64,000 bases of DNA from an uncultured Ruminococcus sp. (GTDB taxonomy: Bacteria > Bacillota > Clostridia > Oscillospirales > CAG-272). Under the pieces are notes generated by a model. It was not told the origin of the DNA, searched no databases, and saw nothing but the letters and a program-made list of their open reading frames with translations. Position numbers and translations under genes: made by a program. This document shows, in pieces, positions 20,062 to 55,922 of this stretch (positions are counted from its first letter, which is position 1; each line of letters opens with the position of its first letter). The stretch spans positions 2,953-66,952 of the forward strand of contig CACWOQ010000004.1 in the NCBI GenBank assembly GCA_902762505.1. Direction: 5' to 3'.

Positions 20062-20090
20062 TTGACACGGTCGGCTTAATATGATATATT
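20062..20090 (+). promoter_or_regulatory. Candidate sigma-A promoter
   Basis: TTGACA, 17 nt, TATATT, about 35 nt upstream of the GH27 start. Confidence 0.5.
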
Positions 20091-20125
20091 CGGATCATAA
20101 CAAACACGATCGGAGGAAAGCCAAT

Positions 20126-21685: not shown

Positions 21686-21837
21686 GTTATGAGTTATGAT
21701 TTGCGGCACAGCCGCAAAGTTATGATATGAGTTTCCGCAATCGTGCCGCAGGCACTCATGATCTGCACAGCGATCATAACGCGCACCGGCACTCATAACG
21801 TTTCGCGTAAGCGAACTCATAACTGCCGGCGTACGCC
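21686..21837. repeat. Intergenic array: GTTATGAGT-type words (about 4 forward, about 4 inverted) interleaved with short GC-rich hairpins
   Basis: Forward words at 21686, 21693, 21719 and 21726. Inverted words (ACTCATAAC / ACTCATGAT / TCATAAC) at 21754, 21774, 21791 and 21815. Hairpins TTTGCGGC-ACA-GCCGCAAA, TGCC-GCA-GGCA, TTCGC-GTAA-GCGAA, GGCG-TA-CGCC. Confidence 0.7.
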
Positions 21838-21851
21838 GCTTATTTTTTATC

Positions 21852-23522
21852 TCATTTCGTTTTCTTCGACGCGGCGACCGCGAGTATCACGAAAAGCACG
21901 ATCAGCGCGATCACGGCGAGCGCCGCGATCAGTATCACCTTTATCACACGCCCAGCGGCGGCGCCTATTGTACCGAGGTCGAGCGTCACGTCCGACGGCT
22001 CATCCGTCTGATTTCCCGGGATTATAACGACAGGCTCCGTGACGTCCGTTTCGGTCTGAGCCGCACCGCTGTCGCCGGGCTCCGTCTCATCCGGCGGAAA
22101 TTCCGCCGTCTCCCTCTCGCCGCATATCAGGCAATAGCGCATACACGTCTTCGGCTCCCACGCCGCGCCTTCGCTTATAACGACCCATTCGCTGAATTCG
22201 TGGACGCATTCCGTTTCCTCACCGGTAAGCGGCGCCGTTACGGGCTCCGTCACGGGCGGGGAGTCTTTATGCTCCGCACGGCAGATGACTGTGCCGATAT
22301 AATCGCCGGAGGGCTTTTTAAGCTCGCCCCCGACGTAGGCGTAGCTCTGCCCCGGCGCAGACGACGTCACCGCAAGCTCATAATCCGGATCGGAATATTC
22401 TGAAAATACGTAATAATTCCCGTTTGCGTGCACCGTTGCGAACAGTGTGACCGTGTCGCCCTTTTTCACGGTCGGCTCCCTGTCAAGCGAAACGCTGTAA
22501 TAACCCGCGTCGGTGACGGTGAGCGTCCCGGCGGCGTCCGGCTTCGCCGTGCCGACGGCCGAGGGATCCTTCAGATTGACGAACAGCTTCGCTTCAAGCA
22601 CGGAACCGGGCTTAGAGGTATAAATCCCCGCGGCGGTGACGGTCAGCTTTTCATTTGCCGTGAATACGTTGACCGCGCCGTACAGCGTTTTATCCGAGGT
22701 GTGGTTCCCGGACAGAAAATCGACCTCCGTATGAGTGAGCACGCGCGCGTCGGAGTCGATCTTAACGCTTGCGGCGTACGCAACTCTGCCGAATTCCGTG
22801 TTATACGAGATATACGCGTAGCCTCCGTCGCCCCAGCCCGTGCCCCAGCTGTTCTTCATTATAAAGGCGCCCGTTCCGGTATCCGTGTATTTCGTATCGT
22901 CCCAGCCGACGAGAAGCAGCTGATGAGACGGCTTCGAATTGTCGAAGCTGAGCGTTCTCGCAACGTGCGTCACGTTGTTGTAGTCGCCTATGAACGCGTC
23001 GCAGCTGACGGCGCCGTATTCCGCGATCCATTCCTTCAGCTTCGCCGTTCTGTCCCTGCGCTGTAATTCCGAAATATCGCGCTCGACAAATCTGTCGATA
23101 TAAGCGAATCTGCCGTACAGAGCCGACACCGGCGCCGAAGACGACGATTCGACCGACGGATACGCGGCGTCGGGCAGCAGACCCTTTCCGGAGACGCCGG
23201 CGAAAAGCGCGTAGTCAAGACTGCCGTAGCATTTGTTCCAGGCGTTTCCGCGGCTGTTTCTGTGTTCGTTGCCGTCAAACTCGGCGCGTGCCATCATGGG
23301 CGCCGAAAAAACGGATGAGCCGGAGGGAGCCTGACCGCTTTTCACGGCGGCGATGCTGAGCATATCCGCTCCGGCGTAAGCCCAGCAGAGCGGATTGTTT
23401 TTCTGGTTGAGCACCGGCGTTTCGGCATCCGTCCTGTATTTATCCGGCAAAGCGGCGGCGGACGCCGCAAAAAGCGACGCCGTAAGGATCAGTATCATAA
23501 AAGCGGATATTGTTTTCTTCAT
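21852..23522 (-). CDS. Papain-family (C1) cysteine peptidase, secreted, with a C-terminal TM anchor
   Basis: Signal peptide. Catalytic Cys context NQKNNPLCWAYAG. MKNSWGTGWGDGGYAYISY. A four-Cys cluster (CVHEF...CMRYCLIC) near the C-terminus, then a TM helix + SKKTK. Confidence 0.8.
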   Translation of the reverse strand: MKKTISAFMILILTASLFAASAAALPDKYRTDAETPVLNQKNNPLCWAYAGADMLSIAAVKSGQAPSGSSVFSAPMMARAEFDGNEHRNSRGNAWNKCYGSLDYALFAGVSGKGLLPDAAYPSVESSSSAPVSALYGRFAYIDRFVERDISELQRRDRTAKLKEWIAEYGAVSCDAFIGDYNNVTHVARTLSFDNSKPSHQLLLVGWDDTKYTDTGTGAFIMKNSWGTGWGDGGYAYISYNTEFGRVAYAASVKIDSDARVLTHTEVDFLSGNHTSDKTLYGAVNVFTANEKLTVTAAGIYTSKPGSVLEAKLFVNLKDPSAVGTAKPDAAGTLTVTDAGYYSVSLDREPTVKKGDTVTLFATVHANGNYYVFSEYSDPDYELAVTSSAPGQSYAYVGGELKKPSGDYIGTVICRAEHKDSPPVTEPVTAPLTGEETECVHEFSEWVVISEGAAWEPKTCMRYCLICGERETAEFPPDETEPGDSGAAQTETDVTEPVVIIPGNQTDEPSDVTLDLGTIGAAAGRVIKVILIAALAVIALIVLFVILAVAASKKTK

Positions 23523-26021: not shown

Positions 26022-26097
26022 GACTCATTAGCTCAGACGGTAGAGCACTTGACTTTTAATCAAGGTGTCCGGAGTTCGAATCTCCGATGGGTCACCA
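26022..26097 (+). tRNA. tRNA-Lys (anticodon UUU), CCA encoded
   Basis: Cloverleaf by hand. Acceptor GACTCAT/ATGGGTC (one G-T pair), D-stem GCTC/GAGC, anticodon stem CTTGA/TCAAG with loop CTTTTAA, T-arm CGGAG-TTCGAAT-CTCCG, discriminator A + CCA. Confidence 0.9.
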
Positions 26098-26129: not shown

Positions 26130-26160
26130 TTCAACAGATCCGCGGCGCGGATCTGTTGAA
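26130..26160. terminator. Second perfect 15-bp inverted repeat (terminator-like hairpin)
   Basis: TTCAACAGATCCGCG-G-CGCGGATCTGTTGAA, starting 4 nt after the first terminator. Confidence 0.5.
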
Positions 26161-26270
26161 TTTCACATTCGGCGCAAGCCGGATATTTCATGGCGGCGAA
26201 GCCGTTATTTCACATTTTGCCGTCAGGCAAAATATTTCACTTTTTTGCCGTCAGGCAGATTATTTCACTT
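26160..26270 (+). repeat. Direct array of five (T)ATTTCA(C/T) words alternating with four GC-rich mini-hairpins
   Basis: Words at 26160, 26184, 26206, 26233 and 26261. Hairpins CGGC-GCAA-GCCG, CGGC-GAA-GCCG, TTGCC-GTCA-GGCAA, TGCC-GTCA-GGCA. The last word contains the stop codon of the convergent AraC gene. Confidence 0.75.
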
Positions 26271-27083
26271 TTCCTTCCGCGATCTTTCCAGCTCCTCGAG
26301 CACCGCCCTGCGGTACTCTCCCGGCGTGATCCCGTTCTGGGACGAGAAAACGCGGTTGAACGTCCGGATGGACTGGAATCCCGCCTCCATCGCCGCCTCG
26401 GTGATGCTTCTCTTCCCGTCCAGCAGCACGCGTTTCGCCTCCATTATCCGCAGCGCCGCGACGTATTTCGTCAGCGTCGTGCCGAGATACCGTCTGAATA
26501 CCCTCTGTATGTACGACGGGCTGATATACAGATCCGCCGCCATCTGCTCCGCCGTTATCTTTTTGGTGAAATTCTCGTTGCAGTACATCAGTATCCTTTC
26601 AACGTTGTCGCCCGAGGCGTCGCGCAGCTTTTTCAGATCGAGCATCGGCAGAAGCCCGGCGATCAGAAGCTCGGCGTACGCGCATTGCAGCTGTTCCTTG
26701 AAGGGAGGCTCCTCCGTAAGCAGACCGGTAAGCTTTTCAAAAACCGAGACGAGCTCGTCCGGCGTATGTTTTACAAGAGGCGACCCGGGCAGATACGACG
26801 TGAAAATATCGCCGAACAGCGAAAGCACGCCCCAGCCGACCGTCGTATAACAGCACAGTATACCGCCGCCGCAGACGTCGAAGCTGTGGACCATATTCGG
26901 GAAAATGACAGCTGTCTGTCCCGGCGTCAGCGTGTACACGGAGCTTCCCAGCCGCAGCTCTGCCGAGCCTTCGAGCATGGTCACTATTTCAAGACATCTG
27001 TGAACGTGCGCGTAATCGGTCAGCTCCCCGCGCTTCGTGGCGAAAACGGGCACGGTCCAGTTTTCATATTTGATACCGGGCAT
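26265..27083 (-). CDS. AraC-family transcriptional regulator (cupin-type sensor + AraC HTH)
   Basis: C-terminal ISPSYIQRVFRRYLGTTLTKYV...ITEAAMEAGFQSIRTFNRVFSSQNGITPGEYR is a canonical AraC dual HTH. The N-terminus looks cupin-like. Confidence 0.85.
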   Translation of the reverse strand: MPGIKYENWTVPVFATKRGELTDYAHVHRCLEIVTMLEGSAELRLGSSVYTLTPGQTAVIFPNMVHSFDVCGGGILCCYTTVGWGVLSLFGDIFTSYLPGSPLVKHTPDELVSVFEKLTGLLTEEPPFKEQLQCAYAELLIAGLLPMLDLKKLRDASGDNVERILMYCNENFTKKITAEQMAADLYISPSYIQRVFRRYLGTTLTKYVAALRIMEAKRVLLDGKRSITEAAMEAGFQSIRTFNRVFSSQNGITPGEYRRAVLEELERSRKEK

Positions 27084-32834: not shown

Positions 32835-34238
32835 ATGAGCGAAAAAGAAAAATCCGCGGGCGAGCTGCTCAAAGAAAAGCTTGTCTACAAAAAGAAAAAC
32901 GTATTTGAAAAATGCCCCGAACAGACCGAGGCGGCGCTCGCCTACTGCGAGGATTACAAAAAATTCCTTGACAACGGCAAGACCGAGCGCGACGCCACCG
33001 CGTATTCGATCGGGCTTGCAAAGGCTCACGGCTTCCGTGAATACAAGCTCGGGATGAAGGTGAAAGCGGGAGACAAATTCTATTACGACAACCGCGGCAA
33101 GAGCCTTTACCTCTTCATCATCGGCTCCGAGGATATCGAAAACGGCATCGCGATCACGGCGGCGCACATCGACTCTCCGAGACTCGACATCAAAGCCAAC
33201 CCCGTATACGAGGCGGGCGGAATGGCGTTCATCAAGACGCATTACTACGGCGGTATCAAGAAATACCAGTGGACGGCGATACCGCTCGCAATACACGGCA
33301 TGGTAACTCTTTCCGACGGAAGCACGGTCGAAGTGAACATAGGCGAGGACGACAACGATCCGCTGTTCTACGTAAACGACATACTTCCCCATCTTGCGAA
33401 GGATCAGTATCAGAAGCACGTCGGCGACGCGATAGAGGGCGAACAGCTCAATCTGCTCTCCGGCAGCATACCGTTCGACAACGAGACGTCGGAGGCGATA
33501 AAACTCAACCTTCTGAAGCTCCTGAACGACAAATACGGAATGACAGAGTACGACTTCCAGGCGGCGGAGCTCTCCGCGGTACCTGCGTACAAGGCGCGCG
33601 ATATCGGTCTTGACAGGTCGCTTATCGCCGCGTACGGTCACGACGACAAGGTCTGCGCATATCCCGAGATCACGGCGATACTGAGCCTCGAGCATCCGAA
33701 GAAGACCGTAATGAGCATCCTCGCCGACAAGGAGGAGACGGGCTCAAACGGCAACACCGGCATGAAGACGAGCGCGTTCTGCGACATCATAGCCGATATC
33801 TCCGCATCGCTCGGGAAGAACGAGCGTATCGTCAGATCCAATTCAGTATGCCTGTCCGCGGACGTCGCGGCGGCGTACGATCCCAACTTCGCGGGAGCCT
33901 ACGAGATAAACAACTCCGCGCTGATCAACTCCGGTATAGCGCTCTGCAAATACACGGGCGCGCGCGGAAAGTCCGATACGAACGACGCCTCGGGCGAATA
34001 CGTCGGGAAGATCAGGAAGATATTCGACGACAACAACGTCGTATGGCAGTCCTGCGAGCTCGGCAAGGTCGATCAGGGCGGCGGCGGAACGGTCGCGAAG
34101 TATATTTCGGAAAAGAACATCGACACGGTCGACGTCGGCGTTCCCGTGATCTCCATGCACGCACCGTACGAGGTCGTATCAAAGTTCGACGTTTACAATA
34201 TGCACAAAGCTGTCGTCGCGTTCTACACGGCTGAATGA
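32835..34238 (+). CDS. M18-family aminopeptidase (aminopeptidase 1 / aspartyl aminopeptidase-like)
   Basis: ATG at 32835 preceded by AGAGGA. AAHIDSPRLDIK, THYYGGIKKYQW, YGHDDKVC, LADKEETGSNG and ISMHAPYE match the M18 metal-binding blocks. Confidence 0.8.
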   Translation: MSEKEKSAGELLKEKLVYKKKNVFEKCPEQTEAALAYCEDYKKFLDNGKTERDATAYSIGLAKAHGFREYKLGMKVKAGDKFYYDNRGKSLYLFIIGSEDIENGIAITAAHIDSPRLDIKANPVYEAGGMAFIKTHYYGGIKKYQWTAIPLAIHGMVTLSDGSTVEVNIGEDDNDPLFYVNDILPHLAKDQYQKHVGDAIEGEQLNLLSGSIPFDNETSEAIKLNLLKLLNDKYGMTEYDFQAAELSAVPAYKARDIGLDRSLIAAYGHDDKVCAYPEITAILSLEHPKKTVMSILADKEETGSNGNTGMKTSAFCDIIADISASLGKNERIVRSNSVCLSADVAAAYDPNFAGAYEINNSALINSGIALCKYTGARGKSDTNDASGEYVGKIRKIFDDNNVVWQSCELGKVDQGGGGTVAKYISEKNIDTVDVGVPVISMHAPYEVVSKFDVYNMHKAVVAFYTAE

Positions 34239-34243
34239 ATATG

Positions 34244-34281
34244 AAAACCGGGGCGGATCCGTCGATACCGCCCCGGTTTTT
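34244..34281 (+). terminator. Intrinsic terminator
   Basis: 13-bp stem AAAACCGGGGCGG / CCGCCCCGGTTTT with an 11-nt loop and a T tail. Confidence 0.8.
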
Positions 34282-34400
34282 CCGTCATCCGCCCTCCGAA
34301 ATTCGAATTTACAAAATGTTTACAAGAATTTCTGACACTTTTTCGTAAAAAACGTATATATATATGAAGAGCAAGCGCTTTTGATAAAAGAGGTATATTT

Positions 34401-34658
34401 ATGAAAAAAATCAGCAAAGCTACCGCTCTGAAGAAAACCGTCTCGCTGCTGCTTTCCTTTGTGATGATCCTCGTTATCATCCCCATCACCGCGGTGCACG
34501 CGGACGACGGTCCCGGGCTTGCGGTCACCGTTCTGGATGAAGATCAGCTTCACGATATAGCCGCAGAGAGCGCGGGAAAGCTGCCGGACGAGCTTTTGCA
34601 GCGCCTGTCCCTGCGCGATGCCGATATCCCGGAATCAATGAGTTCCACGGATATATGA
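34401..34658 (+). CDS. Signal-peptide fragment (85 aa), probably the N-terminus of the downstream gene cut off by an in-frame TGA
   Basis: MKKISKATALKKTVSLLLSFVMILVIIPITAVHA signal peptide. Same reading frame as 34737..36905, with no further stop between 34659 and 34736. Confidence 0.5.
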   Translation: MKKISKATALKKTVSLLLSFVMILVIIPITAVHADDGPGLAVTVLDEDQLHDIAAESAGKLPDELLQRLSLRDADIPESMSSTDI

Positions 34659-34736
34659 AACACGGAAGCGGTCGCCCGGCTCAAAGCCCGTGAAGACGGT
34701 CTTTCGTCGCTTGTATATGTAAACCGTGACGGAAAG

Positions 34737-36905
34737 GTGACGGAATACTTCTTTTCCGAGAACGTGAAGTACGAAAAAGAGGGAAACATATACGATAAAT
34801 CTAACCGCCTTACCGCGTCTGAAAAAACGGGCGGATATACAAACGAAGAGAATGACATAAACGTAACGCTGCCTTTTGAGCTGTCAAAAAGCAGCGGCAT
34901 AGAATTATCCTATAAGGATCACTTGATCGGATTCACACCTGTAAATAAAGACGACGGTAAAACGGCTGCAAAGCAGAGCACGGATGATACCGTAATATAT
35001 AAAAACGCTTTCGGCGAGGGTATATCGCTTGAATATACGGCGCAGTTCTCCGGCGTCAAGGAGAACGTGATAATAGCGCGTGATACGGGAGTATATGAAT
35101 ATGCGTTCGTGCTGAAAACACACGGCTTGTATCTCACAGCGGAAAACGGCGTTGTTCTTTTGCTTGATGAAAAGGGAGAAGAGATCGCGCAGATCGGCGG
35201 CGTGCTGATATATGACGAAAAAGGAAAGCCGGGCGAAGGCTCATTCAATGTAACGGAGCTTGTACCGGGTGAGGAATACGTATACACCGTTTCCGTGTCT
35301 GAGGCTTTTATGAAAAGCGATGATACGGCTTTTCCCGTTACCGTTGATCCGACAATTACATTTAATTCGTCATATCTGTATTATGATTCATCGCTGCAAG
35401 CGTTTTCGGGAGATTATACCCTGGACGCTGCGTGCCAATCTGTAAGCTTAGGACGCACCGGGACGTCAACTTATAAAAGAATGCTTATAAAATTCCCGAG
35501 TTTAACAACGGCGCTGAAAAAAATATCGTTCGATAATATCACAAGTATTAATCTGACGTTATACAGATCGAGTCCGTATGATTTTCAAACGATCAATTGT
35601 TACAGGATGACGAATTCCTGGTCAAGTACATCCGGATCAACAACTTCATCGGTATGGAACGGTTATGATCCCTCAAGCGTTGTAACGGGAAGCTTCTATA
35701 GTAATTGTAATTCCTGCTCGGTGAATATTAAAAGCATATGTGAGAAATGGATCGTAAATAATTACAGTGATTACGGTATAATGATCAAATTGCAGGATGA
35801 ATCGTTAAGCGGTCTGTCTTTGTATACAAAAGAAAATGCGAGCAGAAAACCCGTAGTCAGCATTTCATATACCATGCCTTCAAACATAGAAGACGTCGGA
35901 TTAAAAGAAAAACATCTATACAAGATCAAAAACACTTCTTCATTCAGTTATATCGGCTGTAACAGATCAAATTCAGGTACATATTCCGTATCTTTAAGCA
36001 CAACCGAACCGAGCGCATCATCGACCCTCGAAAACAGTGTGTATTTCGCTTTGTACAAAGACGGGAACAGTGGCTATTTCAAACTGACCCCGACAAATGC
36101 CAACTATAGGGGCAGCAAGGAATTATGGAATACCACTGAGATAAATTACTTGTATTATGACGGCAGCTCTGTAGGTATTTCAAGCAGTTATAACAACAGC
36201 AATAAATCAAGCTGGTACGTTGTAATGCATAACGACGGCAAATACTTTATATTGAACAGATACTATCCGAACATTGCCTTGAACTGGTTCTTAGGTAATC
36301 CTTCAGTTTCAACGGGCGAAGTTTCATTTAGCAGCTTGTCTCATAAATGGGAGTTCATCCCTGTCGGGCTTGATGTGCCGTTAATTCAACAAGAGCCAAA
36401 TTACTGCGGTCCTTGTTCAGTATTACAGGCAATAACATATAACGGAACTGAGAATCAAATTTGTAACAACCCGAACAATTACCAGAATCAATTGGCAATA
36501 AATATGAATACTGACTCAAGCGGGACAATCGTTGGCAAGGTTAAAGATGAGTTAAACAAGACGATTTATAACTTTCCTTCAACATTCAATAGTTACAGAG
36601 ACAACGTTATTAACAATACAAATAAGCTTAAAGAATATTGCCAGCATAGTTTAAACTTGCTATGTCCGGTTATCATTCAGGTTAAGCCATCAATTCTAGA
36701 TTATTATTCAAGTAATTATTCAAGCGATGGACACTATATTTGCTTGATTGGTATTGACGGAAATAACGCGATAGTAAGAGATTGTAATAATTCCGACTCG
36801 TATTTTGGTGAATTTGTTGTTCCTTTAAGTTCAGTATATGATGCCTCAACAAATTACTTTCCCCCCGATCATCCAACATATTCAAACTATATTATCTGCG
36901 CGTAA
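34737..36905 (+). CDS. Large multidomain protein: DNRLRE-like domain, beta-trefoil-like region and C-terminal papain-fold (C39-like) cysteine peptidase; lacks its own signal peptide
   Basis: The reading frame stays open upstream back to the TGA at 34656. The C-terminus has QQEPNYCGPCSVLQAI (Cys) and DGHYICLIGIDG (His), typical of the Peptidase_C39-like fold. WYVV and KWEFIP are QxW-like. Domain names are from motif memory. Confidence 0.5.
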   Translation: MTEYFFSENVKYEKEGNIYDKSNRLTASEKTGGYTNEENDINVTLPFELSKSSGIELSYKDHLIGFTPVNKDDGKTAAKQSTDDTVIYKNAFGEGISLEYTAQFSGVKENVIIARDTGVYEYAFVLKTHGLYLTAENGVVLLLDEKGEEIAQIGGVLIYDEKGKPGEGSFNVTELVPGEEYVYTVSVSEAFMKSDDTAFPVTVDPTITFNSSYLYYDSSLQAFSGDYTLDAACQSVSLGRTGTSTYKRMLIKFPSLTTALKKISFDNITSINLTLYRSSPYDFQTINCYRMTNSWSSTSGSTTSSVWNGYDPSSVVTGSFYSNCNSCSVNIKSICEKWIVNNYSDYGIMIKLQDESLSGLSLYTKENASRKPVVSISYTMPSNIEDVGLKEKHLYKIKNTSSFSYIGCNRSNSGTYSVSLSTTEPSASSTLENSVYFALYKDGNSGYFKLTPTNANYRGSKELWNTTEINYLYYDGSSVGISSSYNNSNKSSWYVVMHNDGKYFILNRYYPNIALNWFLGNPSVSTGEVSFSSLSHKWEFIPVGLDVPLIQQEPNYCGPCSVLQAITYNGTENQICNNPNNYQNQLAINMNTDSSGTIVGKVKDELNKTIYNFPSTFNSYRDNVINNTNKLKEYCQHSLNLLCPVIIQVKPSILDYYSSNYSSDGHYICLIGIDGNNAIVRDCNNSDSYFGEFVVPLSSVYDASTNYFPPDHPTYSNYIICA

Positions 36906-36930
36906 AAATCATCATAATGGAGGATGCAAA

Positions 36931-37605
36931 ATGAATTATGTAAAAAAAGCAGTAATATGCTTAGTTTCCATTACAATAGTATTGTCTGTCGCGTGTTGTG
37001 CATACGAAACGACGAATAAATATGACGGCAGCATAAAATGTGCGTTTCAACTATATCTGGTGATGTATCAGGATTGTGCAAATAAGCCATATGTTGAAAA
37101 TACTGACATAAGTATTGACGCTGATACGGAAGACTACGGAAAATGTAAAGCGTGGGAATTCACAGAGGATCTGTCAACTCCCGAAAAATTCAATGATTAT
37201 ACGTCGTCATTCTTTGACGATAACGTTTCCGCAAAGGCTTTTCATGAAACGATGTATCTTAAACTGATTGACGGAAAAATCGTATTGCTTGAGTTAGGAC
37301 CGCAATATATACCGTTTCAATATGACGAATCTGCGAAAACTTACATCATTGCAGAAACAGATAATACAATAACTTTGAAACGTGCAATCCTGCATATTAA
37401 CGGAAATGGCGACAGATCTCAAATTGATTACACCTTTATAATAAATAAAACAAATCAAAAAATCTGCGGAGGCACATTTGTTGAAAAAATGCTTGAAATC
37501 GATGCCGACACCCCTCAAACCTCCGACGCGCCAGTGATCGCTGTATGTGCTCTGACGCTTTCCGCCGCGGCGGCAGCGGTGCTGATAAAGAAGAAAAAAG
37601 TCTGA
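36931..37605 (+). CDS. Small surface (lipo)protein with a C-terminal TPQTSD sorting-signal-like tail
   Basis: ATG at 36931 with GGAGGA upstream. Signal/lipobox LSVACC. C-terminus DTPQTSDAPVIAVCALTLSAAAAAVLIKKKKV. Confidence 0.6.
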   Translation: MNYVKKAVICLVSITIVLSVACCAYETTNKYDGSIKCAFQLYLVMYQDCANKPYVENTDISIDADTEDYGKCKAWEFTEDLSTPEKFNDYTSSFFDDNVSAKAFHETMYLKLIDGKIVLLELGPQYIPFQYDESAKTYIIAETDNTITLKRAILHINGNGDRSQIDYTFIINKTNQKICGGTFVEKMLEIDADTPQTSDAPVIAVCALTLSAAAAAVLIKKKKV

Positions 37606-37752
37606 CCCGTGCCGTTCATCATATACGACAAGAACGCGGCGCACGTGATAGAGCCGGCGGACGATTACGGTCTGTCGAACGTAGCCGCCACCGTCACCGA
37701 GCTTCTCGGTCTTACGCCGGATCCCGTATGGCAAAGAAGTATGCTGAAATAA
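37606..37752 (+). pseudogene. 48-codon C-terminal relic of an alkaline-phosphatase-superfamily (metalloenzyme/phosphodiesterase-like) gene
   Basis: Directly in frame after the TGA of the preceding gene: PVPFIIYDKNAAHVIEPADDYGLSNVAATVTELLGLTPDPVWQRSMLK*. GC-rich like the host, and followed by its own terminator. No start codon and no N-terminal part. Confidence 0.5.
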
Positions 37753-37755
37753 GTC

Positions 37756-37780
37756 AACGGGGAACTCTGTTCCCCGTTTT
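37756..37780 (+). terminator. Intrinsic terminator (belongs to the relic gene)
   Basis: AACGGGGAAC-TCT-GTTCCCCGTT then TT. Confidence 0.65.
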
Positions 37781-37900
37781 CCGTCAAAAAAGCGAATTTA
37801 CATAAAATTAACAAGAAAAAACGACACTTTTCGGGTGTTTTTTACGTTTATATAAGTGAGCGAAAAAACCAAAATTATAATGCAGCAAGGAGAATGCAAA

Positions 37901-38713
37901 ATGAAAACCAAAAGAATTGTCTCGCTGGTCCTTTCAGTCATAACGCTTTTTTTGACATTACCGTCCTTTTCCGTTGCAACCGATGGATTGACCATATCTG
38001 AAGCGGCGAGGCTTGTTCGCGGATTTGAAGAAGCATATCTTATGACTGTCGAGTCAAACAAGGCGCCTCTTTTCTGGCAAAAGGATAAAAACATAAGTTT
38101 AAGCTACGAATACCGATTATCGAATGACAATCCGCAGTATGAGGCAGACAACGTTGAAAGCGGCGCCAAGTTATATATGTGCATAATGGAAACGTATGAC
38201 GAACTCCTGCAAAAACTGAAGCTTACGTTTACCGACGAGATGTCGAAAAAGATACTGAACGACAGTCGGTTCATCTATATCGACGGTAAAGCATATTATC
38301 CGAGAATCTTTTTCGACCCCGGTAATTTTTACGTTATTTCCGACGATGAGAATACCGAGGTTCCACTTGAAGAGCGTATTACGATTGTTGATAACGGAGA
38401 CGGTAGGTATACCGTTCATTACAACTATTGGGCGCCTGTCGAGGATGATAATGAAAACCATAATTCTGACAAATGGCTGTTATCCGATGCAAGAGACGGT
38501 CAAATAGACATCGTAAAAACAGACGACGGATTCAGAGTGTATAAGTATGACGGACTGTTATTCAAATCCGATCCTTTAGCGGACAGAGGCTTACGTAAAA
38601 CGCGTTTATTGAGCGAATCCCCTCAAACCTCTGACGCGCCGGTGATCGCGGTATGCGCGCTGGCGCTTTCCGCCGCAGCGGCGGCAGTCGTTCTTCGGAA
38701 AAAGCGCGGCTGA
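37901..38713 (+). CDS. Small secreted surface protein with a C-terminal SPQTSD sorting-signal-like tail
   Basis: ATG at 37901 with AAGGAGAA upstream. Signal peptide ...LPSFSVA. C-terminus ESPQTSDAPVIAVCALALSAAAAAVVLRKKRG. Confidence 0.6.
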   Translation: MKTKRIVSLVLSVITLFLTLPSFSVATDGLTISEAARLVRGFEEAYLMTVESNKAPLFWQKDKNISLSYEYRLSNDNPQYEADNVESGAKLYMCIMETYDELLQKLKLTFTDEMSKKILNDSRFIYIDGKAYYPRIFFDPGNFYVISDDENTEVPLEERITIVDNGDGRYTVHYNYWAPVEDDNENHNSDKWLLSDARDGQIDIVKTDDGFRVYKYDGLLFKSDPLADRGLRKTRLLSESPQTSDAPVIAVCALALSAAAAAVVLRKKRG

Positions 38714-49370: not shown

Positions 49371-49790
49371 ATGAAGAATACAAGTGAAATGCTGAGAGAC
49401 CTCAAGGGCTGTGAGATGTTTGAGAAATACTACGCCAGCAACAGACGGGATTTCAACAGAACCGATCTTTCGTCGTATCTGAACGATATCATCGCGCGCA
49501 AAGGACTTCGCAAAAGCGACGTCATACGCCGTTCGGAGCTCAGCGAGGTATACGGATATCAGATATTCGGAGGCTTGCGCCGCCCCGAGCGCGACAAGCT
49601 GCTCAGTCTTCTCATCGGTATGGAGCTCAAATTCGACGAGATCCAGCTGCTTTTCAAATCGTGCGGTTACGCTCCGCTTTACGCGAAGGACCCGCGTGAC
49701 GCGGCGATAATATTCGCCGTACTGAACAGGCTTTCCGTTGCGGAAACGAACGAGCTGCTTGAAAAATACGGATTTGCGTCAATAGGATGA
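49371..49790 (+). CDS. XRE-like HTH protein (paralog A), first gene of the HTH / zinc-ribbon / kinase operon
   Basis: GLRKSDVIRRSELSEVYGYQIFGGLRRPERDKLLSLLIGMEL is HTH_3-like. Clear paralog of 57111..57539 (shared Y.YQIF...(R/K)RP.RDK, GY(A/P)PLYAKD.RD). Confidence 0.65.
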   Translation: MKNTSEMLRDLKGCEMFEKYYASNRRDFNRTDLSSYLNDIIARKGLRKSDVIRRSELSEVYGYQIFGGLRRPERDKLLSLLIGMELKFDEIQLLFKSCGYAPLYAKDPRDAAIIFAVLNRLSVAETNELLEKYGFASIG

Positions 49791-50956
49791 AAAAATGTAA
49801 ATACTGCGGACGTGCAATAAGAGACGAGGCGAGATTCTGTCTTTACTGCATGAATTCGCTTGAAGAAAAAAAGGTAATAGAAATAAAAAACAGACGCCCC
49901 GTCAAAGCGATCATCGCCGCCGGGGCTTCCGTCGTTGTGACGGCGGGTGCCGTTGCCGTCGCGCTTTCCGCGGGCGGCGCGGTAAACGGCGCGGCGCATA
50001 TCAGGGAAGCGTCTTACGCGCCGCTGACCGACACCGCCGCCGTGACCCTTGCGCAATCCGGTCCGGAGGACGAAACGGAGCTTGTGATATTATCGCTTTT
50101 CGCCTCAGCCGATCAAAACGGCGATGAGACCGGCGCGCCGGAAGCGACCGCACCCGAAACGACGGAGTCCGAGACAACGGCGTCGGAAACGACAGTACCC
50201 GAAACGTCCGCACCTGAAACCGCCGCGCCGGAAACCACAACGTCAGAAACGACGGCGCCCGAAACGACGGGACCCGAAACATCCGCGCAGGAAACCGCCG
50301 CACCGGAAACCACAACGTCAGAAACGACGGTGCCCGAAACGTCCGCACCTGAAACCGCCGCACCGGAAGCAACGACGCCTGTGTCCGGGCAGTATTCCAT
50401 CCTGCCGGTCGGGCAGATCGGATATCTCACGCCCGGCGTCACCCTGTCGGATAAGCCGTTCGTTTCGTACGGCGACTGGACCGGTTACCGCGCCGAGCAT
50501 ACCGTAAAAGGTGAGGTCGTGCAGTACGGCGATCCGCTCATATACGTTTACGGAGACGGTGAAAAAGCGGTGTTCGAGGCGTCGCCCGAATCGCTTACCG
50601 GATCCCCCTCCGACGCTGACGCGGCGGACCTCGCTTATTCCATGCTGTGCCGCGTTACCGGGGCTTTGCCCGGCTCGCTGTGCGACGCGGAGGGCAACGA
50701 CGTAAACGCTCTTATGCGCAGCGTAACGAATTACGGCGGGGAAGGATACGACGGCATCCTTACGTCTCTTTGTCTGCCGGACGAACACAGGCGTGTATTA
50801 TATACGTACGGGATGATACCCGAATTCAGCCGCAGTGAATTCACGATCGGCGGCGAGCGGAGCATGCGCGTCACGTTTGAGGTACGCCGGTGGTCCGGTA
50901 TGACGTCGGGGATCTGCGTCGTTGACTGCGTGACGCTCATTGAATACGCCGACTGA
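49787..50956 (+). CDS. Zinc-ribbon / single-TM / T-E-P linker / extracellular-domain protein (module A)
   Basis: Start overlaps the HTH stop (ATGA). [23 protein letters not shown] is a CxxC...CxxC zinc ribbon. TM helix [28 protein letters not shown]-type repeats, then a C-terminal domain of about 190 aa and unknown fold. Confidence 0.65.
50183..50377 (+). repeat. In-frame tandem repeat (60/75/60 nt units) encoding SETT(V/A)[15 protein letters not shown]
   Basis: Units at 50183-50242, 50243-50317 (with a 15-nt insertion) and 50318-50377, read directly from the sequence. Confidence 0.8.
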
Positions 50957-50957
50957 A

Positions 50958-51662
50958 ATGAACAGACAGCAGTTTGAAACAGATATAAAAAAGATCTACT
51001 CGACGGTAGCGGTGATAACGGACAAACCCGGAAAAAAGGTGATCCGCTGCCGCCACACAGAGCTATTGCGCGACGTTGTGGTAAAGATCACGGAGAACGA
51101 TCTGCCCGCGTGCCGTTTTCTCTGCGGGATACGCCACGCGAATCTCCCGGAGATATACGACGTGTACGATCTTGACGACGGGTTTGCCGTCGTCGAGGAA
51201 TTCATAGCCGGAATGGATCTGCGCGGATCGCTCGGAGCCGGACTGTACGACTACTCCGGCGCGCGCAGCGTGATCCGCCAGGTCTGCCGCGCGCTCGCCG
51301 TTCTCCACGAAAACGGCTTCGTTCACAGGGACGTGAAGCCGGAAAACGTGATGATCGCGGACGACGGGACGGTCAAGCTTATAGACTTCGACGCCTGCCG
51401 CGCCTATTCAAGCGTAAAAAGCGCCGACACGCAGATCCTCGGTACGATCGGCTACGCCCCGCCCGAGCAGTTCGGCGTGGCGCAGAGCGACAGCCGTAGC
51501 GATATATACGCCGTAGGCGTTCTGCTGAACGTTATGCTTACGGGCGTCCATCCGTCGGAGAGAATAGCGCGCGGACGCGCCGGCAGGATAATCAGAAAAT
51601 GCACGCGGATCAACCCGGACGAGCGTTTCCGTGACGTGGAAAAGCTTATATCCGCGTTATAA
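50958..51662 (+). CDS. Stand-alone short Hanks-type Ser/Thr kinase domain protein (module A)
   Basis: [30 protein letters not shown]. No TM helix and no sensor domain. The ATG at 50958 lies 1 nt after the upstream stop (TGAaATG), mirroring module B. The listed TTG at 50940 is the alternative start. Confidence 0.7.
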
Positions 51663-51701
51663 AGAGCCGTTTTCAGGGATAGGCTATATAAAGAAGAAAC
51701 A

Positions 51702-51757
51702 AACCCACTCTGTCATCTTTCAATTATAGAAAGTGTCATAGTGGGTTATTTTCTTTC
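51702..51757 (+). terminator. Terminator-like compound hairpin after kinase A
   Basis: Outer stem AACCCACT/AGTGGGTT, inner stem CTTTC/GAAAG, followed by ATTTTCTTTC. Confidence 0.5.
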
Positions 51758-51801
51758 AGCTCGTCTTAACCCTTCCGATATAGGAAAGGTTTTTATTATT
51801 C

Positions 51802-52013
51802 AGCTAAATTGCTCGCTTACGCTCGCAGCTAAATTGAAGTCTTACGACTTCAGCTAAATTGAAAACCACAGGTTTTCAGCTAAATTAAATTCGCCTTTAA
51901 GCTCGCGTCAGCGAATTTAGCTTGCGACAGCAAATTTAGCTATGCGGAGCATAATTCAGCTCGCCGCTCGCGGCGAATTTAGCTGCGGTGTACTTCCTTA
52001 TGAAGTACACCGC
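51802..52013. repeat. Convergent 4+4 array of the 9-mer AGCTAAATT alternating with distinct short hairpins
   Basis: Plus-strand copies at 51802, 51827, 51852 and 51878. Inverted copies (AATTTAGCT; one is AATTCAGCT) at 51914, 51933, 51953 and 51976. Spacers are GAAGTC-TTAC-GACTTC, GAAAACC-ACA-GGTTTTC, TGC-GACA-GCA, ATGC-GGA-GCAT, CGCCG-CTCG-CGGCG, plus a terminal 12-bp stem at 51985-52013. Confidence 0.85.
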
Positions 52014-52198
52014 TACCGCGGCTTTTTCTTTGCGTCCGGCTTTTCCACGCTGACATTCGTGCCGGACATTTCGCGGTATGATTCCGCTTCACCGTCCGTC
52101 AGCGGCACGCTCGCTGTGAGTCCCGTGCACTCGTTCGCCATGACGGCGCCGGCAAACAGCTCGTCCTTTGTGAGAGGCACTTTTTTCTTTTTCTTCAT
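52013..52198 (-). CDS. Small hypothetical protein (61 aa, Lys-rich at both ends)
   Basis: GGAGG lies 8 nt upstream of the ATG at 52198. MKKKKKVPLTKDELFAGAVMANECTGLTASVPLTDGEAESYREMSGTNVSVEKPDAKKKPR. The stop abuts the 12-bp hairpin of the array. I recognise no family. Confidence 0.4.
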   Translation of the reverse strand: MKKKKKVPLTKDELFAGAVMANECTGLTASVPLTDGEAESYREMSGTNVSVEKPDAKKKPR

Positions 52199-52256
52199 TT
52201 TCATCACCTCCGCCGCATTATTGCCGTCATGTTTTAAAAAAATTCAATGATTGATA

Positions 52257-52285
52257 TTGCAAATATGCACAATAGACTGTATAAT
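52257..52285 (+). promoter_or_regulatory. Candidate sigma-A promoter of the aminotransferase gene
   Basis: TTGCAA, 17 nt, TATAAT. Confidence 0.55.
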
Positions 52286-52361
52286 ATAATGAAAACGTAC
52301 GTTTTTTTGCAGGGCGGTTTGAGTTTTACTGCAAAAATACGGTCCTTAAAAGGTGGCTTAT

Positions 52362-53645
52362 ATGAAAAAATACACGGAAATGGATCGCGCGGAGCTTTTA
52401 TCCGAGCGCCAAAGGATACAGAACGAATACGACGATATCAAGGCGCAGGGCTATAAGCTCGATATGTCGCGCGGAAAGCCGAGCAGCGAGCAGCTGCGGC
52501 TCACGGAATCCATGCTCGGGATCCTCAATAAAGGATGCGACTGCAAAACGGACGAGGGCATAGACTGCCGCAACTACGGTCAGCTTTTCGGCTTGCCGGA
52601 GGCGAGACAGCTTTTCTCCTCCCTGCTTGACATCCCTGCCGACAACATAATCCTCGGCGGCAACTCGTCGCTCAATATGATGTACGATACCGTTGTCCGC
52701 GCGATGCTATACGGAGTGCCCGGCGGCGACCGTCCCTGGTGCAAGCTCGACCGCGTTAAATTCCTCTGCCCCTCCCCCGGTTACGACAGGCATTTCAGCA
52801 TCTGTGAATCGCTCGGGATAGAGATGATACCGGTAGACATGACGCCGACCGGTCCCGATATGGACGCGGTCGAATCTCTCGTCGCCTCGGACGAGAGCAT
52901 AAAAGGCATCTGGTGCGTGCCGAAATACTCCAACCCTCAGGGCATAACGTATTCCGACGAGACGGTGAGACGCTTTGCTCGCCTTGAATGCAAGGCGAAG
53001 GATTTCAGGATATTCTGGGACAACGCGTACGCCGTGCACGATCTTGACGAGGAAGGTGACAGTCTTCTGAACATCTTCCGGCTCATGCAGGGGACGGACA
53101 AGGAGGATATGCTTTATTTCTTCTTCTCAACGTCGAAGATAAGCTTCCCCGGCTCGGGCGTCGCAATGCTCGCTCTGAGCGACGGGAACCTCGCCGCAGC
53201 GAAAAAGATCATCGAGGTCCAGACGATAGGACCGGATAAAATAAACCAGCTGAGGCACGTAAAATACTTCACGAATGCCGAAGGCATAGTAGACCACATG
53301 AGACTTCACGGAATGGTGCTGAAGCCCAGATTCGACGTGGTGCTGGGTACGCTGCGCAAGGAGCTTGCGCCCGCGGGCATCGCCTCCTGGACCGAGCCGA
53401 AGGGCGGCTACTTCATCAGCCTCGACGTGGCGGACGGTACCGCCGCGGAAACGTACAGACTTGCGGCGGAAGCCGGCGTGAAAATAACGAAAGCCGGCGC
53501 CACCTTCCCGTACGGCAAGGATCCGAGGGACAGAAATCTGAGACTTGCGCCGTCGTATCCGCCTCTGCGCGAGCTGATCGAGGCGATACACGTCATCTGT
53601 GTCTGCGCAAAGCTCGCATATCTTGACAAAGCGCTTAACGTTTGA
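52362..53645 (+). CDS. PLP-dependent aminotransferase, class I/II fold (aspartate/aromatic aminotransferase-like)
   Basis: ATG at 52362 with AAAGGTGG upstream. LDMSRGKPSSEQL, CPSPGYDRHF, CVPKYSNPQG, FWDNAYAVH and FSTSKISFPGSG (Lys for PLP) are characteristic of this aminotransferase subgroup. Confidence 0.75.
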   Translation: MKKYTEMDRAELLSERQRIQNEYDDIKAQGYKLDMSRGKPSSEQLRLTESMLGILNKGCDCKTDEGIDCRNYGQLFGLPEARQLFSSLLDIPADNIILGGNSSLNMMYDTVVRAMLYGVPGGDRPWCKLDRVKFLCPSPGYDRHFSICESLGIEMIPVDMTPTGPDMDAVESLVASDESIKGIWCVPKYSNPQGITYSDETVRRFARLECKAKDFRIFWDNAYAVHDLDEEGDSLLNIFRLMQGTDKEDMLYFFFSTSKISFPGSGVAMLALSDGNLAAAKKIIEVQTIGPDKINQLRHVKYFTNAEGIVDHMRLHGMVLKPRFDVVLGTLRKELAPAGIASWTEPKGGYFISLDVADGTAAETYRLAAEAGVKITKAGATFPYGKDPRDRNLRLAPSYPPLRELIEAIHVICVCAKLAYLDKALNV

Positions 53646-53778: not shown

Positions 53779-54522
53779 TCATTTGCCGGGAAGGATCCTG
53801 ATCCCGGCGCCGAGCGCCGAGGCGAGCGCTTCGGCTGATCTGTACCGCAGATCCGGATTGATCTGCGTGCATTTGAGTATGATCCTGCCGGCGCGGCCCT
53901 TAGCGATCCGCTCCGTCGGGTGGGATCCCGTGAGCAGGACGTTGTAAAGAACGCCGAGCGCGTAGATATCGACTCTGCAGTCGCTCTGGCTTATTCCGAA
54001 CTGCTCGGGCGAGGCGTACCCCGGAGTTCCGAGCACTCTCGTGTCGCCGGTCTTGCTGTCGTCGTACAGGCGCGCCGCGTCGAAATCTATGAGCACGACT
54101 CTTTCGCCCGATATCATTACGTTTTCCGGCTTTATATCTCTGTGGACGAAGCCGTTTGAATGAAGCAGCGAAAGGATGCCGCAAAGACTGATAACGATAT
54201 CCGCGGCTTGCTTTTTCGACAGCTCCTCCGTCATGATCAGATCGGACAGAAGCCTTCCTTTTATGAATTCTTCTATGAGGACCGCTCCGTCCGGGCATTC
54301 GTATACCTCGTAAACGCGCGGAAGTCCGTCGCATTCCACCCCGCGCAGAAAGCCGTATACGGGCAGATATTCCGGCAGGCTTTTTATAAGGAAATCGCGT
54401 CCCGTGCCCGCGTGAACGGCTTTGAATATCATTTTGCCGTCTGACGCGGACATCTCGCCGCCGGTTTTGAAAAGCCCGCCCAGCCCGTCAAGCACTTCCT
54501 GTCTTGTTTTTTTCGTTCTCAT
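53779..54522 (-). CDS. Stand-alone short Hanks-type Ser/Thr kinase domain protein (module B)
   Basis: HRDIKPENVMI, DFDAARLY, GTPGYASPEQF. 247 aa with no TM helix. The ATG lies 1 nt after the upstream stop (TGAtATG). Confidence 0.7.
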   Translation of the reverse strand: MRTKKTRQEVLDGLGGLFKTGGEMSASDGKMIFKAVHAGTGRDFLIKSLPEYLPVYGFLRGVECDGLPRVYEVYECPDGAVLIEEFIKGRLLSDLIMTEELSKKQAADIVISLCGILSLLHSNGFVHRDIKPENVMISGERVVLIDFDAARLYDDSKTGDTRVLGTPGYASPEQFGISQSDCRVDIYALGVLYNVLLTGSHPTERIAKGRAGRIILKCTQINPDLRYRSAEALASALGAGIRILPGK

Positions 54523-54523
54523 A

Positions 54524-55798
54524 TCAGTTTACGTATTCCGCGTATGTGAATGTACCGCTCTCGAAAAACCACGGTATAGATTGTATTATCCTGTCGTCGG
54601 TTGGCAATCCGATAACGTTTTTATATTCCACCGTGACTCTGACGGTATGCTCGGCGCCCTTTAAGAGAAATTCACGGTATTCGTATTCTATCGAACCGAC
54701 GTTTCCGAGTCCGCCATACTCCCTGAAAACGTCGTATAACGGATAATCCGGATTATCCTCGTCAATACGTCCGTCAAATCCGTATTCGATCCCGATACCG
54801 CGCCAGCCATCCGGTCTCTTGTGTTCTTCCGCTTCCGATACGGCGAGACGGAGATCCGGATCGTCGGCACCGACGTTCAGAGAATAGCCTAACAACGACA
54901 ATCCGTCAAATTCGTGATCGGAATATGCGGCGACGGCGCCGCCGCCGTTTCTGAAGTAAACGAGCCTCCTGTGCTCAAGATCTTCAATTTGCTTTGATAC
55001 ACCGTAATCCGGATCCATCGTCCCGTATAAAAAAGTCGTCCAATCGTTATAACAATAGGCTTCGAGCCACAGGTATTCCGATACATACGGATCGTCCGGA
55101 GGTCCTCCGGCAAATTCGTCTTTGTCAACGATCCTGACCGGACCTCGGGTCTTTACCTCTACGTCGGGTATTCCGGTTTCCGGAACTGTTGTTTCGGGAG
55201 CCGTTGTTTCCGGCGGCGTTTCGGGGGTTGCCGTTTCGGCGGTCGTCGTTTCCGGGGGCGTTGTTTCGGGAGTCGTCGTTTCCGGCGGAGTTGTTTCCGG
55301 CGGAGTTGTCACCGGTGTCTGCGTTTCCTTTATCTCCGTCACGGGCGCTATGGTCACGGGCGCCGCTGTTTCGGGTTCCGCCGTTTCACCGTCTGTTTCG
55401 GGAGGCGCCGTTTCAGTCTCCGAAGCCGCTGTCACAGGCTCCGGCTCCGTGCCGGGTGAGGTTTGACCGTCTGCCGTCTCTGTATTATCCGGGTCGGTTC
55501 CGGTTATCGCCGGCGCAGCGGCGGTCACTTCCGTGCCGTCCGACGATCCGCCGTTCACGCCGGATTCGGCGTTGGTATACACACCGGGTCTGAAGCTGCC
55601 GAACGCACGGTGCACGGAAGTCACGGCGAGTACCGAGAAAACGGTAACGGCGGCGATAACGGCGAACAGCACCGGATACAGCCTTGATTTTCTGTCCGTG
55701 TCGATCACGACGCGTGCGGCTGAGGAGGTGCGCTCCGCGCAGAAAACGCAGAACGACGATCCGTTGTCGATCTGCCTGCCGCAGTTCGGGCATTTCAT
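54524..55798 (-). CDS. Zinc-ribbon / single-TM / T-E-P linker / extracellular-domain protein (module B)
   Basis: Preferred start is ATG 55798 (MKCPNCGRQIDNGSSFCVFC), 11 nt after AAAGGAGG. TM helix YPVLFAVIAAVTVFSVLAVTSV. PETT repeats. The C-terminal domain of about 210 aa is unrelated to that of module A. Confidence 0.65.
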   Translation of the reverse strand: MKCPNCGRQIDNGSSFCVFCAERTSSAARVVIDTDRKSRLYPVLFAVIAAVTVFSVLAVTSVHRAFGSFRPGVYTNAESGVNGGSSDGTEVTAAAPAITGTDPDNTETADGQTSPGTEPEPVTAASETETAPPETDGETAEPETAAPVTIAPVTEIKETQTPVTTPPETTPPETTTPETTPPETTTAETATPETPPETTAPETTVPETGIPDVEVKTRGPVRIVDKDEFAGGPPDDPYVSEYLWLEAYCYNDWTTFLYGTMDPDYGVSKQIEDLEHRRLVYFRNGGGAVAAYSDHEFDGLSLLGYSLNVGADDPDLRLAVSEAEEHKRPDGWRGIGIEYGFDGRIDEDNPDYPLYDVFREYGGLGNVGSIEYEYREFLLKGAEHTVRVTVEYKNVIGLPTDDRIIQSIPWFFESGTFTYAEYVN

Positions 55799-55922
55799 AT
55801 CCGCGCTCACCTCCTTTTAACGTATTTTACCACCGATGCGCGCAAAAATCAATATTTGCGGGAAAATTGAAAAGCCGTTTTTTAAAATTTATGATTTTTT
55901 GTTTTTTTCGGCGTAAAATATC

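Follow-up and report, generated by a model that had tools for sequence, protein, structure and literature searches.

The stretch of DNA analysed here (the window) is 64 kb of ordinary chromosome from an uncultured member of the Clostridia, whose nearest protein relatives are found in metagenome-assembled genomes of Acutalibacteraceae, Oscillospiraceae and Ruminococcus. One of three repeat arrays in the window, array 3, is flanked on the left by a Ser/Thr kinase gene (50958-51662, +) and on the right by a small open reading frame (ORF) of 61-64 amino acids (52013-52207, -), which is followed by an aspartate aminotransferase gene. In this array a 9-nt word, AGCTAAATT, alternates with small hairpins. 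The array is the core of a non-coding element of about 341 bp (51675-52015), which is dispersed elsewhere with unrelated flanks, and it is very probably a dispersed structured element of the kind represented in Rfam by the motif Gut-1.

Array 3 has a convergent 4+4 layout, made of seven exact copies of AGCTAAATT and one variant. The coordinates given in a first-pass annotation of the window, which was made from the sequence alone, proved right for every copy. The four forward words, all exact, start at 51802, 51827, 51852 and 51878; the reverse words are exact at 51914-51922, 51933-51941 and 51976-51984, and the variant AGCTGAATT occupies 51953-51961. Words are spaced by 19, 20, 23, 25, 25 and 26 bp, without helical phasing. 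No further exact copy besides these seven was found within the 64 kb window. The distal half-array (51802-51886, +) contains three spacers, of which the first, GCTCGC-TTAC-GCTCGC, is a direct repeat, as had been claimed, and is kept in other copies of the element. The other two are the hairpins GAAGTC-TTAC-GACTTC and GAAAACC-ACA-GGTTTTC. The conserved centre (51887-51903) consists of AAATTCGCC followed by a degenerate reverse word, TTTAAGCT (51896-51903). Together with the hairpin CGC-GTCA-GCG (51904-51913), this word makes up a fifth reverse unit, overlooked previously, which is 79% identical to the next unit and differs from it by a C..G to T..A change that keeps the pair. In the proximal half-array (51904-51984, -) the reverse words at 51914, 51933, 51953 (the variant) and 51976 alternate with CGC-GTCA-GCG, TGC-GACA-GCA, ATGC-GGA-GCAT and CGCCG-CTCG-CGGCG. 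The inverted repeat AAATTCGC/GCGAATTT at the centre and all other palindromes listed in the annotation are present, including the 12-bp stem of the terminal hairpin GCGGTGTACTTC-CTTAT-GAAGTACACCGC (51985-52013). This hairpin belongs to the element and overlaps the stop codon of the small ORF by 1 nt.

Seven of the eight spacers of array 3 are end-to-end perfect hairpins, compared with at most three in 20,000 shuffles, and the seven exact copies of one 9-mer inside 250 nt compare with at most four in shuffled windows. Chance, already doubted in the annotation, is thereby excluded as the origin of the array. There is equally little doubt that the array is real DNA and not an assembly artefact, because it is base-for-base identical in at least four independent public assemblies. 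Many public contigs terminate within or just ahead of it, and assemblers are evidently troubled by it; in the public assemblies of the same strain (L001-L010; loci are denoted by L and a number) most kinase-bearing contigs stop in or just before the array. Such breaks agree with a repeat that occurs in several copies or varies between strains and so interrupts de Bruijn assemblies. An array of intrinsic terminators was also considered and rejected. No terminator-like site was found in 51500-52400, and the hairpins of the array continue into AGCUAAAUU or AAUUUAGCU, not into a U tract, so that there is no GC-rich hairpin directly 5' of such a tract.

The annotation treated the array alone, yet the array is only part of a larger unit. 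The whole element (51675-52015) consists of a left module, the array and the terminal hairpin, and blastn homology to other loci is confined to 51675 to about 52015/52033. The identity is 97% in L365 and 71-80% in L432, L350 and L338, the similarity starting at 51675 and stopping at about 52015. Homologues of the kinase, the small ORF and the aminotransferase are absent from these four loci by tblastn. They were therefore rejected as orthologous loci and represent separate insertions of one element. On the left the element has a sharp boundary, at the first base of AGGGAKAGGCT; on the right it ends together with the 12-bp hairpin. The left module (51675-51801) is formed by a long imperfect hairpin (51694-51755) and a subsequent hairpin (51768-51791) with a T run (51768-51800 together). 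An inverted repeat, I1, was detected in it, and its RNA fold z-scores are -5.0 (+) and -5.6 (-). The module accompanies the array in L365, L350, L432, L343 and L338 at 81-98% identity. The hairpins that resemble terminators of the kinase gene are parts of the element, a point which had escaped the annotation. Among copies, the words, the centre, the terminal hairpin, some of the other hairpins and the non-hairpin spacer GCTCGC-N4-GCTCGC are kept, while other hairpins are replaced outright and the number of units varies. The sequence of the terminal hairpin is kept in L338, L350, L354, L365, L384, L431 and L432 despite unrelated flanks. No terminal inverted repeats or target duplications were seen in the flanks of five copies.

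Two complementary arms, at 51661-51669 (AAAGAGCCG) and 52019-52027 (CGGCTTTTT), surround the element and resemble a terminator hairpin that the kinase gene and the small ORF would have in common. The flanks of other copies also pair with each other (A7-GGCGAT ... ATCGCC-T7 in L350, CTCCCCG ... CGGGGAG in L338), and the syntenic loci L012 and L455 have one bidirectional hairpin only between their homologues of the kinase and the small ORF. In L011 the contig ends, downstream of the kinase homologue, with an array that has a different word and the opposite orientation. We infer that the element was inserted into the loop of a host terminator hairpin, of which the two arms would be the left and right halves. 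The stop codon of the small ORF (52013-52015) is made of the last base of the terminal hairpin followed by TA, that is, of the last bases of the element, and the insertion probably reshaped the C-terminus of the small-ORF protein. The final codons of this ORF (KKKPR) pass through the right arm of the split hairpin.

The annotation had proposed that the word-plus-palindrome layout be sought across metagenomes. A scan with a pattern of three AGCTAAATT copies matched at least 120 stretches, and at least 61 arrays with hairpin spacers were found in at least 59 loci from human gut and rumen, on contigs with a GC content of 0.37-0.57. The AGCTAAATT family is widespread in gut and rumen Clostridia. 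All family statistics given here (spacers, pairs, loops, orientation and flanking genes) are taken among the matches listed. A single perfect hairpin makes up 102 of the 124 distinct spacers in the 61 arrays. The usual unit order is '>>>><<<<', with 19 convergent arrays and 1 divergent array; the remaining arrays show a single orientation, many of them being cut by contig ends. The centre AGCTAAATT-AAATTCRCY is kept in all bipartite copies, and a long hairpin or terminator is found at one end of the array across the family. One contig often bears arrays of further words (ATTTCAC, GTGATAT, ATGATG, AATTCATG), and no fewer than five word families are found together in the same genomes or contigs.

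Two proposals of the annotation do not survive comparison with the family. In the first, the words would be iteron-like sites in double-stranded DNA, with a sequence-specific protein bound there forming a roadblock that separates the convergent genes. Eight opposed copies of one word between convergent genes, in a family with mostly convergent flanks, would be expected of such an array. However, a spacing of 19-26 bp without helical phasing, the occurrence of five or more word families side by side in a genome or contig and the lack of a linked DNA-binding gene are all contrary to it, and it leaves the palindromic spacers without explanation; iteron-like binding is accordingly considered most improbable. 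The XRE-like helix-turn-helix proteins that had been named as nearby candidates could not be recovered either, since no XRE-type domain was found among the neighbouring ORFs scanned; nor were transposase, cas or Nop-domain genes found among the ORFs scanned in the window. The second proposal was that the words are insertion or excision footprints with 9-bp target duplications, to which a guide array like those of CRISPR or TIGR systems may be added. A constant repeat alternating with variable inserts gives a superficial likeness to these, and TIGR arrays also hold variable palindromes. Both are contradicted, however, and barely conceivable, in view of the same word, hairpin and unit order, centre and terminal structures being kept in many unrelated loci and species. 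Furthermore, variable non-palindromic spacers are not present, no cas, Tas or Nop genes were found nearby, and the units measure about 25 nt as against at least 36 nt in TIGR and at least 50 nt in CRISPR arrays. Readings of the words as primase sites (CTA/TTA) or as -10-like elements were dropped, as they fail, judged by eye, for other word families.

Several individual loci of the family deserve description. In L401 (3790-4090) three arrays abut, with words of the AATTCATG type (in reverse polarity), AGCTAAATT and ATGATG, each obeying the loop polarity described below, and a Gut-1 match lies about 600 nt beyond them, at 4701-4770. In L360 (11309-11702) an entire AGCTAAATT array with about 30 nt of flank is present as a tandem duplicate, the two copies differing only at a few stem and loop positions. 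A PF05635 gene (23S rRNA-intervening-sequence protein, 118 aa, 95 bits) recurs beside AGCTAAATT arrays in L368, L382, L393 and L402, and in L368 (437-1077) arrays are found on either side of it. tRNA genes directly adjoin several arrays of both word families (L419:442-884, L011:298-381, L332:681-1336 and window 26022-26097). Nearly all forward-sense linker words in the window, L011, L401 and the Rfam seed contain RUGA (GUGA or AUGA) or UAA, and each of these words therefore holds a stop codon, usually as an overlapping start-stop.

Other scans were less productive. A scan of a genome collection with the kinase alignment gave about nine relevant loci and was dominated by a generic kinase pattern; the other loci served as negative controls. 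The viral scan with a AGCTAAATT pair pattern gave chance matches only, none of 130 having a hairpin spacer; a GTGAAAT triple pattern gave mostly chance matches as well, yet led to Gut-1 arrays. blastn of array 3 against phages gave no match, and blastn of a Gut-1 array gave one, to an unannotated record. In the literature searched on palindromic spacers, hairpin arrays and variable palindromes, nothing besides Weinberg 2010 was found to fit; the TAACTGA repeats were considered as a published counterpart and excluded.

Each half-array is built of an AU-rich 9-mer that does not vary and, in alternation with it, GC-rich mini-hairpins that vary in sequence but stay paired. Both strands of the array fold far better than shuffles (z = -6.9 and -6.4). 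Upon aligning the proximal half-array in 13 sequences, 90% of the cells were found to be paired, compared with 23-42% in controls with slid partners. Both sides had changed in 10 of the 15 pairs, which none of 500 shuffles reached, so that the covariation across related loci that the annotation had suggested looking for does exist. In the family as a whole the stems comprise 522 Watson-Crick pairs and 11 mismatches (98% Watson-Crick). The 533 pairs include 3 G.U pairs on one strand and 3 on the other, an excess in neither direction. The compensatory changes preserve the hairpins and support the earlier suggestion that selection acts on structure rather than on sequence.

A long-range helix, P0, forms between the centre and a distant stretch that comprises the outermost hairpin's 3' arm and the next word. 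Its 5' strand (51886-51895, TAAATTCGCC) pairs with its 3' strand (51972-51981, GGCGAATTTA), forming the inverted repeat I12, which is 10 nt long and 100% complementary. P0 can close the half-array next to the 12-bp terminal hairpin. Its 3' strand shares bases with the local hairpin 51962-51975, in the 3' arm, and the two pairings are therefore mutually exclusive. The variable part of P0 covaries between subfamilies (CGCC/GGCG, CAC/GTG, CGCT/AGCG). An equivalent helix is found in Gut-1 arrays (GAAATAAATCC(C)/GGGATTTATTTC, GAAATCCACCC/GGGTGGATTTC and AAATCCGTCC/GGACGGATTT) and covaries there too.

The covariation could in principle be mutational. In a functionless selfish repeat, slippage between words would change the size of the array, and template switching would make or repair the palindromes. 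Template switching is reportedly able to create and maintain hairpins. The unit number does vary, whole units are duplicated inside arrays (e.g. L374 and L360), some hairpins are replaced entirely in copies that are 80-97% identical in their other modules, the palindromes are perfect and public assemblies break at the array. Such a process does not account for the conservation of the words, the centre, the terminal hairpin, the hairpin order and GCTCGC-N4-GCTCGC across copies and taxa, on contigs with a GC content of 0.37-0.57, nor for a loop and closing-pair bias that is strong and polar. Moreover, P0 covaries across 76 nt, a distance beyond the reach of local template switching. We regard a functionless repeat as distinctly unlikely.

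A branched structure of single-stranded RNA or DNA, which the annotation had put forward, agrees with the covarying long-range helix and with the closest database match, the structured motif Gut-1. Gut-1 (Rfam RF01706) is an orphan motif of 77 nt from human gut sequences, with the word GUGAAAU (Weinberg et al. 2010, PMC2864571). Its authors rated it RNA from covariation; their alignment holds members with the word GUGAUAU, and the reverse half is visible in its flank (PMC2864571). No later mention of Gut-1 was found in the literature searched. The best Rfam match of array 3 is to Gut-1 at 51909-51985 (-), with 29.0 bits and an E value of 0.0011, which is below the gathering score of 50 bits. 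No AGCTAAATT array in 15 loci, and none of the 11 AGCTAAATT-array loci rescanned with Rfam, reached this threshold, and array 2 of the window scored 38.3 bits, also below it, while GTGAAAT arrays scored 52-78 bits. L015 has two Gut-1 matches, on opposite strands and convergent. GTGAAAT/ATTTCAC arrays with distinct hairpins were also found in the relatives L011 and L015 and in IMG/VR contigs, with a GC content of 0.33-0.57. When array 3 is aligned to the Gut-1 model all three helices are retained, as hairpins with covarying stems.

The flanking genes are convergent at 21 arrays and divergent at 2. Of 68 ends entered in the forward-word sense, 22 have a stop codon of the same orientation no more than 35 nt away, compared with 3 of 30 ends entered in the reverse sense. 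The annotation had noted that the words have the same polarity in the reading direction of each flanking gene, and this pattern holds across the family. Selection on structure, a branched single strand and word polarity are thus the parts of the earlier interpretation that are retained, the footprints and the iteron array being given up. The genomic context favours action in transcripts. The reading we favour is that array 3 is a dispersed Gut-1-related element working as a REP/BIME-like 3'-end module in the transcripts of both convergent genes; taken as a whole, it is given an even chance. The more specific claim that the element acts at 3' ends at the level of RNA is made tentatively, as somewhat less likely than not.

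According to this reading, the element would act single-stranded, most likely as RNA, which would arise in two ways, as the 3' untranslated region of small-ORF transcripts and from transcription running on past the kinase gene. With the mirror layout, a transcript of either strand would have the forward words first and the reverse words second. The hairpins may keep the repeated 9-mers single-stranded, creating a multivalent site for a putative partner. Alternatively, the words of one half may pair with those of the other, drawing the two halves into a rod of stacked junctions. In both cases the element would be a 3'-end module similar to REP/BIME, with a role in protecting or processing transcript ends or in insulation, serving both convergent genes, and it would spread as a selfish insertion with a preference for terminator hairpins.

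Several results weigh against action in transcripts. A conserved internal promoter was not found, the best candidate being a 9/12 match that is not kept in other copies. The adjacent gene has its own canonical terminator ahead of some arrays. Neither a protein nor an RNA partner was identified, and no gene is consistently linked to the arrays; signs of transposition, that is, terminal inverted repeats or target duplications, were not found in the copies examined. Finally, the loop sequences are strongly strand-polar. The loops on the forward-word strand are TGC, TTC, TTAC, TGAC and TTGC, and those on the opposite strand are therefore GCA, GAA, GTAA, GTCA and GCAA. The GNA and GNNA loops are almost always closed by a C:G pair, in each half they lie on the strand whose 5' to 3' direction leads away from the centre, and none of the GNA type was seen on the forward-word strand among the matches listed. 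The strand of the adjacent gene thus has UNC and UNNC loops, while the stable, C:G-closed GNA/GNNA loops are on the opposite one (at least 34 versus 0). Triloops outnumber tetraloops, and this excess, together with the Watson-Crick stems lacking a surplus of G.U on either strand, fits DNA mini-hairpins better than typical RNA.

These features lead to the main competing explanation, in which the element works at the level of DNA. Replication, supercoiling driven by transcription, or transposition of a single strand would provide the single-stranded or supercoiled DNA in which the mini-hairpins form, and the 4+4 mirror would show the stable-hairpin strand to machines arriving from either side. 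The element might then be a polar barrier, a REP/BIME-like site for gyrase or a single-strand-binding protein, or the substrate of an HUH-type transposase. Such a role is in keeping with the near-complete Watson-Crick pairing without wobble bias and with a 5'-C..G-3' closing pair in 58 of 63 triloops. On the centre-outward strand the loops are GCA, GAA, GTA, GTAA, GCAA, GTCA and GACA, besides g-CAAG-c; GTCA and GACA fall outside the GNRA class of RNA loops, and DNA energy parameters slightly favour the GNA/GNNA strand. We take these loops to belong to the classes d(cGNAg), d(cGNNAg) and d(gCNNGc), which are reported to be exceptionally stable in DNA. Hairpins of this kind are said to extrude from supercoiled DNA at the promoters of phage N4. 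The lack of a promoter, and mobility without terminal inverted repeats or target duplications, as in single-strand transposons, point the same way. On the other hand, stop codons adjoin the arrays in one preferred orientation, P0 of L276 has two G.U pairs on the Rfam strand (G.T in DNA, on that strand only), single hairpins are weak as DNA (-1 to -5 kcal/mol), and neither an HUH transposase nor another candidate gene was found in the window. Gut-1, moreover, was rated RNA by its authors (PMC2864571). On account of the loop polarity, the near absence of wobble, the triloop excess and the missing promoter, a DNA-level element is kept as possible, if somewhat unlikely.

The other two arrays of the window and some of its genes can be described briefly. 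The neighbours of array 3 are kinase, zinc-ribbon protein, aminotransferase and similar genes. Array 1 (about 21686-21830) is built as array 3 with other words, GTTATGAGT/ACTCATAAC, and is more degenerate. Its words are GTTATGA(GT) in the forward and (AC)TCATAAC in the reverse direction, its central spacer CCGCA-ATCGTG-CCGCA is a direct repeat, and its flanks, an alpha-galactosidase gene (20081-21532, +) and a papain-family protease gene (21852-23522, -), are convergent. Array 2 (about 26140-26272) has five words (T)ATTTCAC and hairpins with GNNA loops, and is situated directly downstream of tRNA-Lys (26022-26097) and its terminator. The TGA stop codon (26265-26267) of an AraC-family gene (26265-27083, -) falls within the first word of this array. 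Two paralogous gene sets, 49371-51662 (+) and 53779-55810 (-), are inverted on either side of the aminotransferase gene, each with a zinc-ribbon protein containing Pro/Thr-rich tandem repeats of 15/75 nt (50134-50379 and 55191-55400) and a short Ser/Thr kinase. The region 34000-38000 has a low GC content (0.39-0.45, as against about 0.56 elsewhere in the window) and encodes a protein of 722 aa (34737-36905), which bears a C39-like peptidase domain, besides ORFs without a family match. This island may have been horizontally acquired.

New features are the mirror layout in two halves, the long-range helix P0, the polarity of the loops, the multiple word families, the dispersal and the position inside terminator hairpins. 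The group is bipartite and mirror-symmetric, with interchangeable linker words, and is abundant in gut and rumen Clostridia. It inserts at the 3' ends of genes and probably in terminator hairpins, can give host genes their stop codons and breaks metagenome assemblies. A bolder proposal, which we regard as speculative and rather improbable, is that the Gut-1, AGCTAAATT, GTGATAT, ATGATGA, GTTATGAGT, CATGAATTA and other arrays make up one unrecognised class of mobile elements of Clostridia. Such elements would home to the loops of terminator hairpins by a single-strand mechanism; their hairpin cassettes would be actively exchanged or regenerated by a templated process in which the word is copied at each step, and each word family would have its own putative trans-acting partner. 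If so, the class would reverse the logic of CRISPR, having a constant linker and variable palindromes. Strand polarity, P0 and the sharp element boundaries offer testable handles. If active in transcripts, the elements would mean that 3'-end regulation in major gut bacteria has a common layer which annotation has missed; if active as DNA hairpins, they would be a Gram-positive counterpart of REP/BIME with a putative mobilising enzyme.

Among known systems, REP/BIME/REPIN sequences resemble the present elements in being extragenic palindromes clustered in alternating or mirror orientation, dispersed, multicopy and non-coding, and located at gene 3' ends or between convergent genes, as are 21 arrays here against 2. 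Entire doublets can likewise fold as a long hairpin. REPs, however, keep the palindrome and vary the linkers, whereas here the linkers are kept and the 124 spacers differ; a conserved imperfect palindrome of about 20-40 nt repeated through the genome, which defines a REP, is not what is found, and identity with REPs was rejected. No gene for a RAYT (Y1 HUH) transposase is present in the 64 kb window and no 5' tetranucleotide of the GTAG type was identified. REPs belong to Proteobacteria, a clade different from that of the present host. MITEs share a length of a few hundred bp, the lack of coding capacity, dispersal, sharp boundaries and presence or absence between relatives. Unlike them, the element, which starts with AGGGAKAGGC and ends with GAAGTACACCGC, has no terminal inverted repeats beyond the words and no target-site duplication. 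TIGR units carry two variable guide spacers of 8-12 nt and box C/D motifs, beside a gene for a Nop-domain Tas protein (PMC12045711). TIGR and CRISPR arrays are similar in having tandem units with variable segments that are consistently palindromic, and some of these systems occur in Oscillospiraceae. Here, by contrast, the sole part that is not palindromic does not vary, and genes for Tas, Nop or Cas proteins are not near.

The closest resemblance is to Gut-1. Both have at least three GC-rich hairpins of free sequence, parted by an invariant AU-rich linker ending in AAAU, and both are found in gut Clostridia, with a long hairpin or terminator at one end. They also share the loop polarity, the two convergent halves and the covarying closing helix. 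The linker is AGCUAAAUU here and (G)UGAAAU in Gut-1, only AAAU being in common. With this different linker and a sub-threshold score, array 3 is a variant related to Gut-1 and not a member of it. As Gut-1 is itself an orphan, the match names array 3 without explaining it. The Rfam model spans one 77-nt half only, and the comparison shows Gut-1 to correspond to half of a single member within a far wider group.

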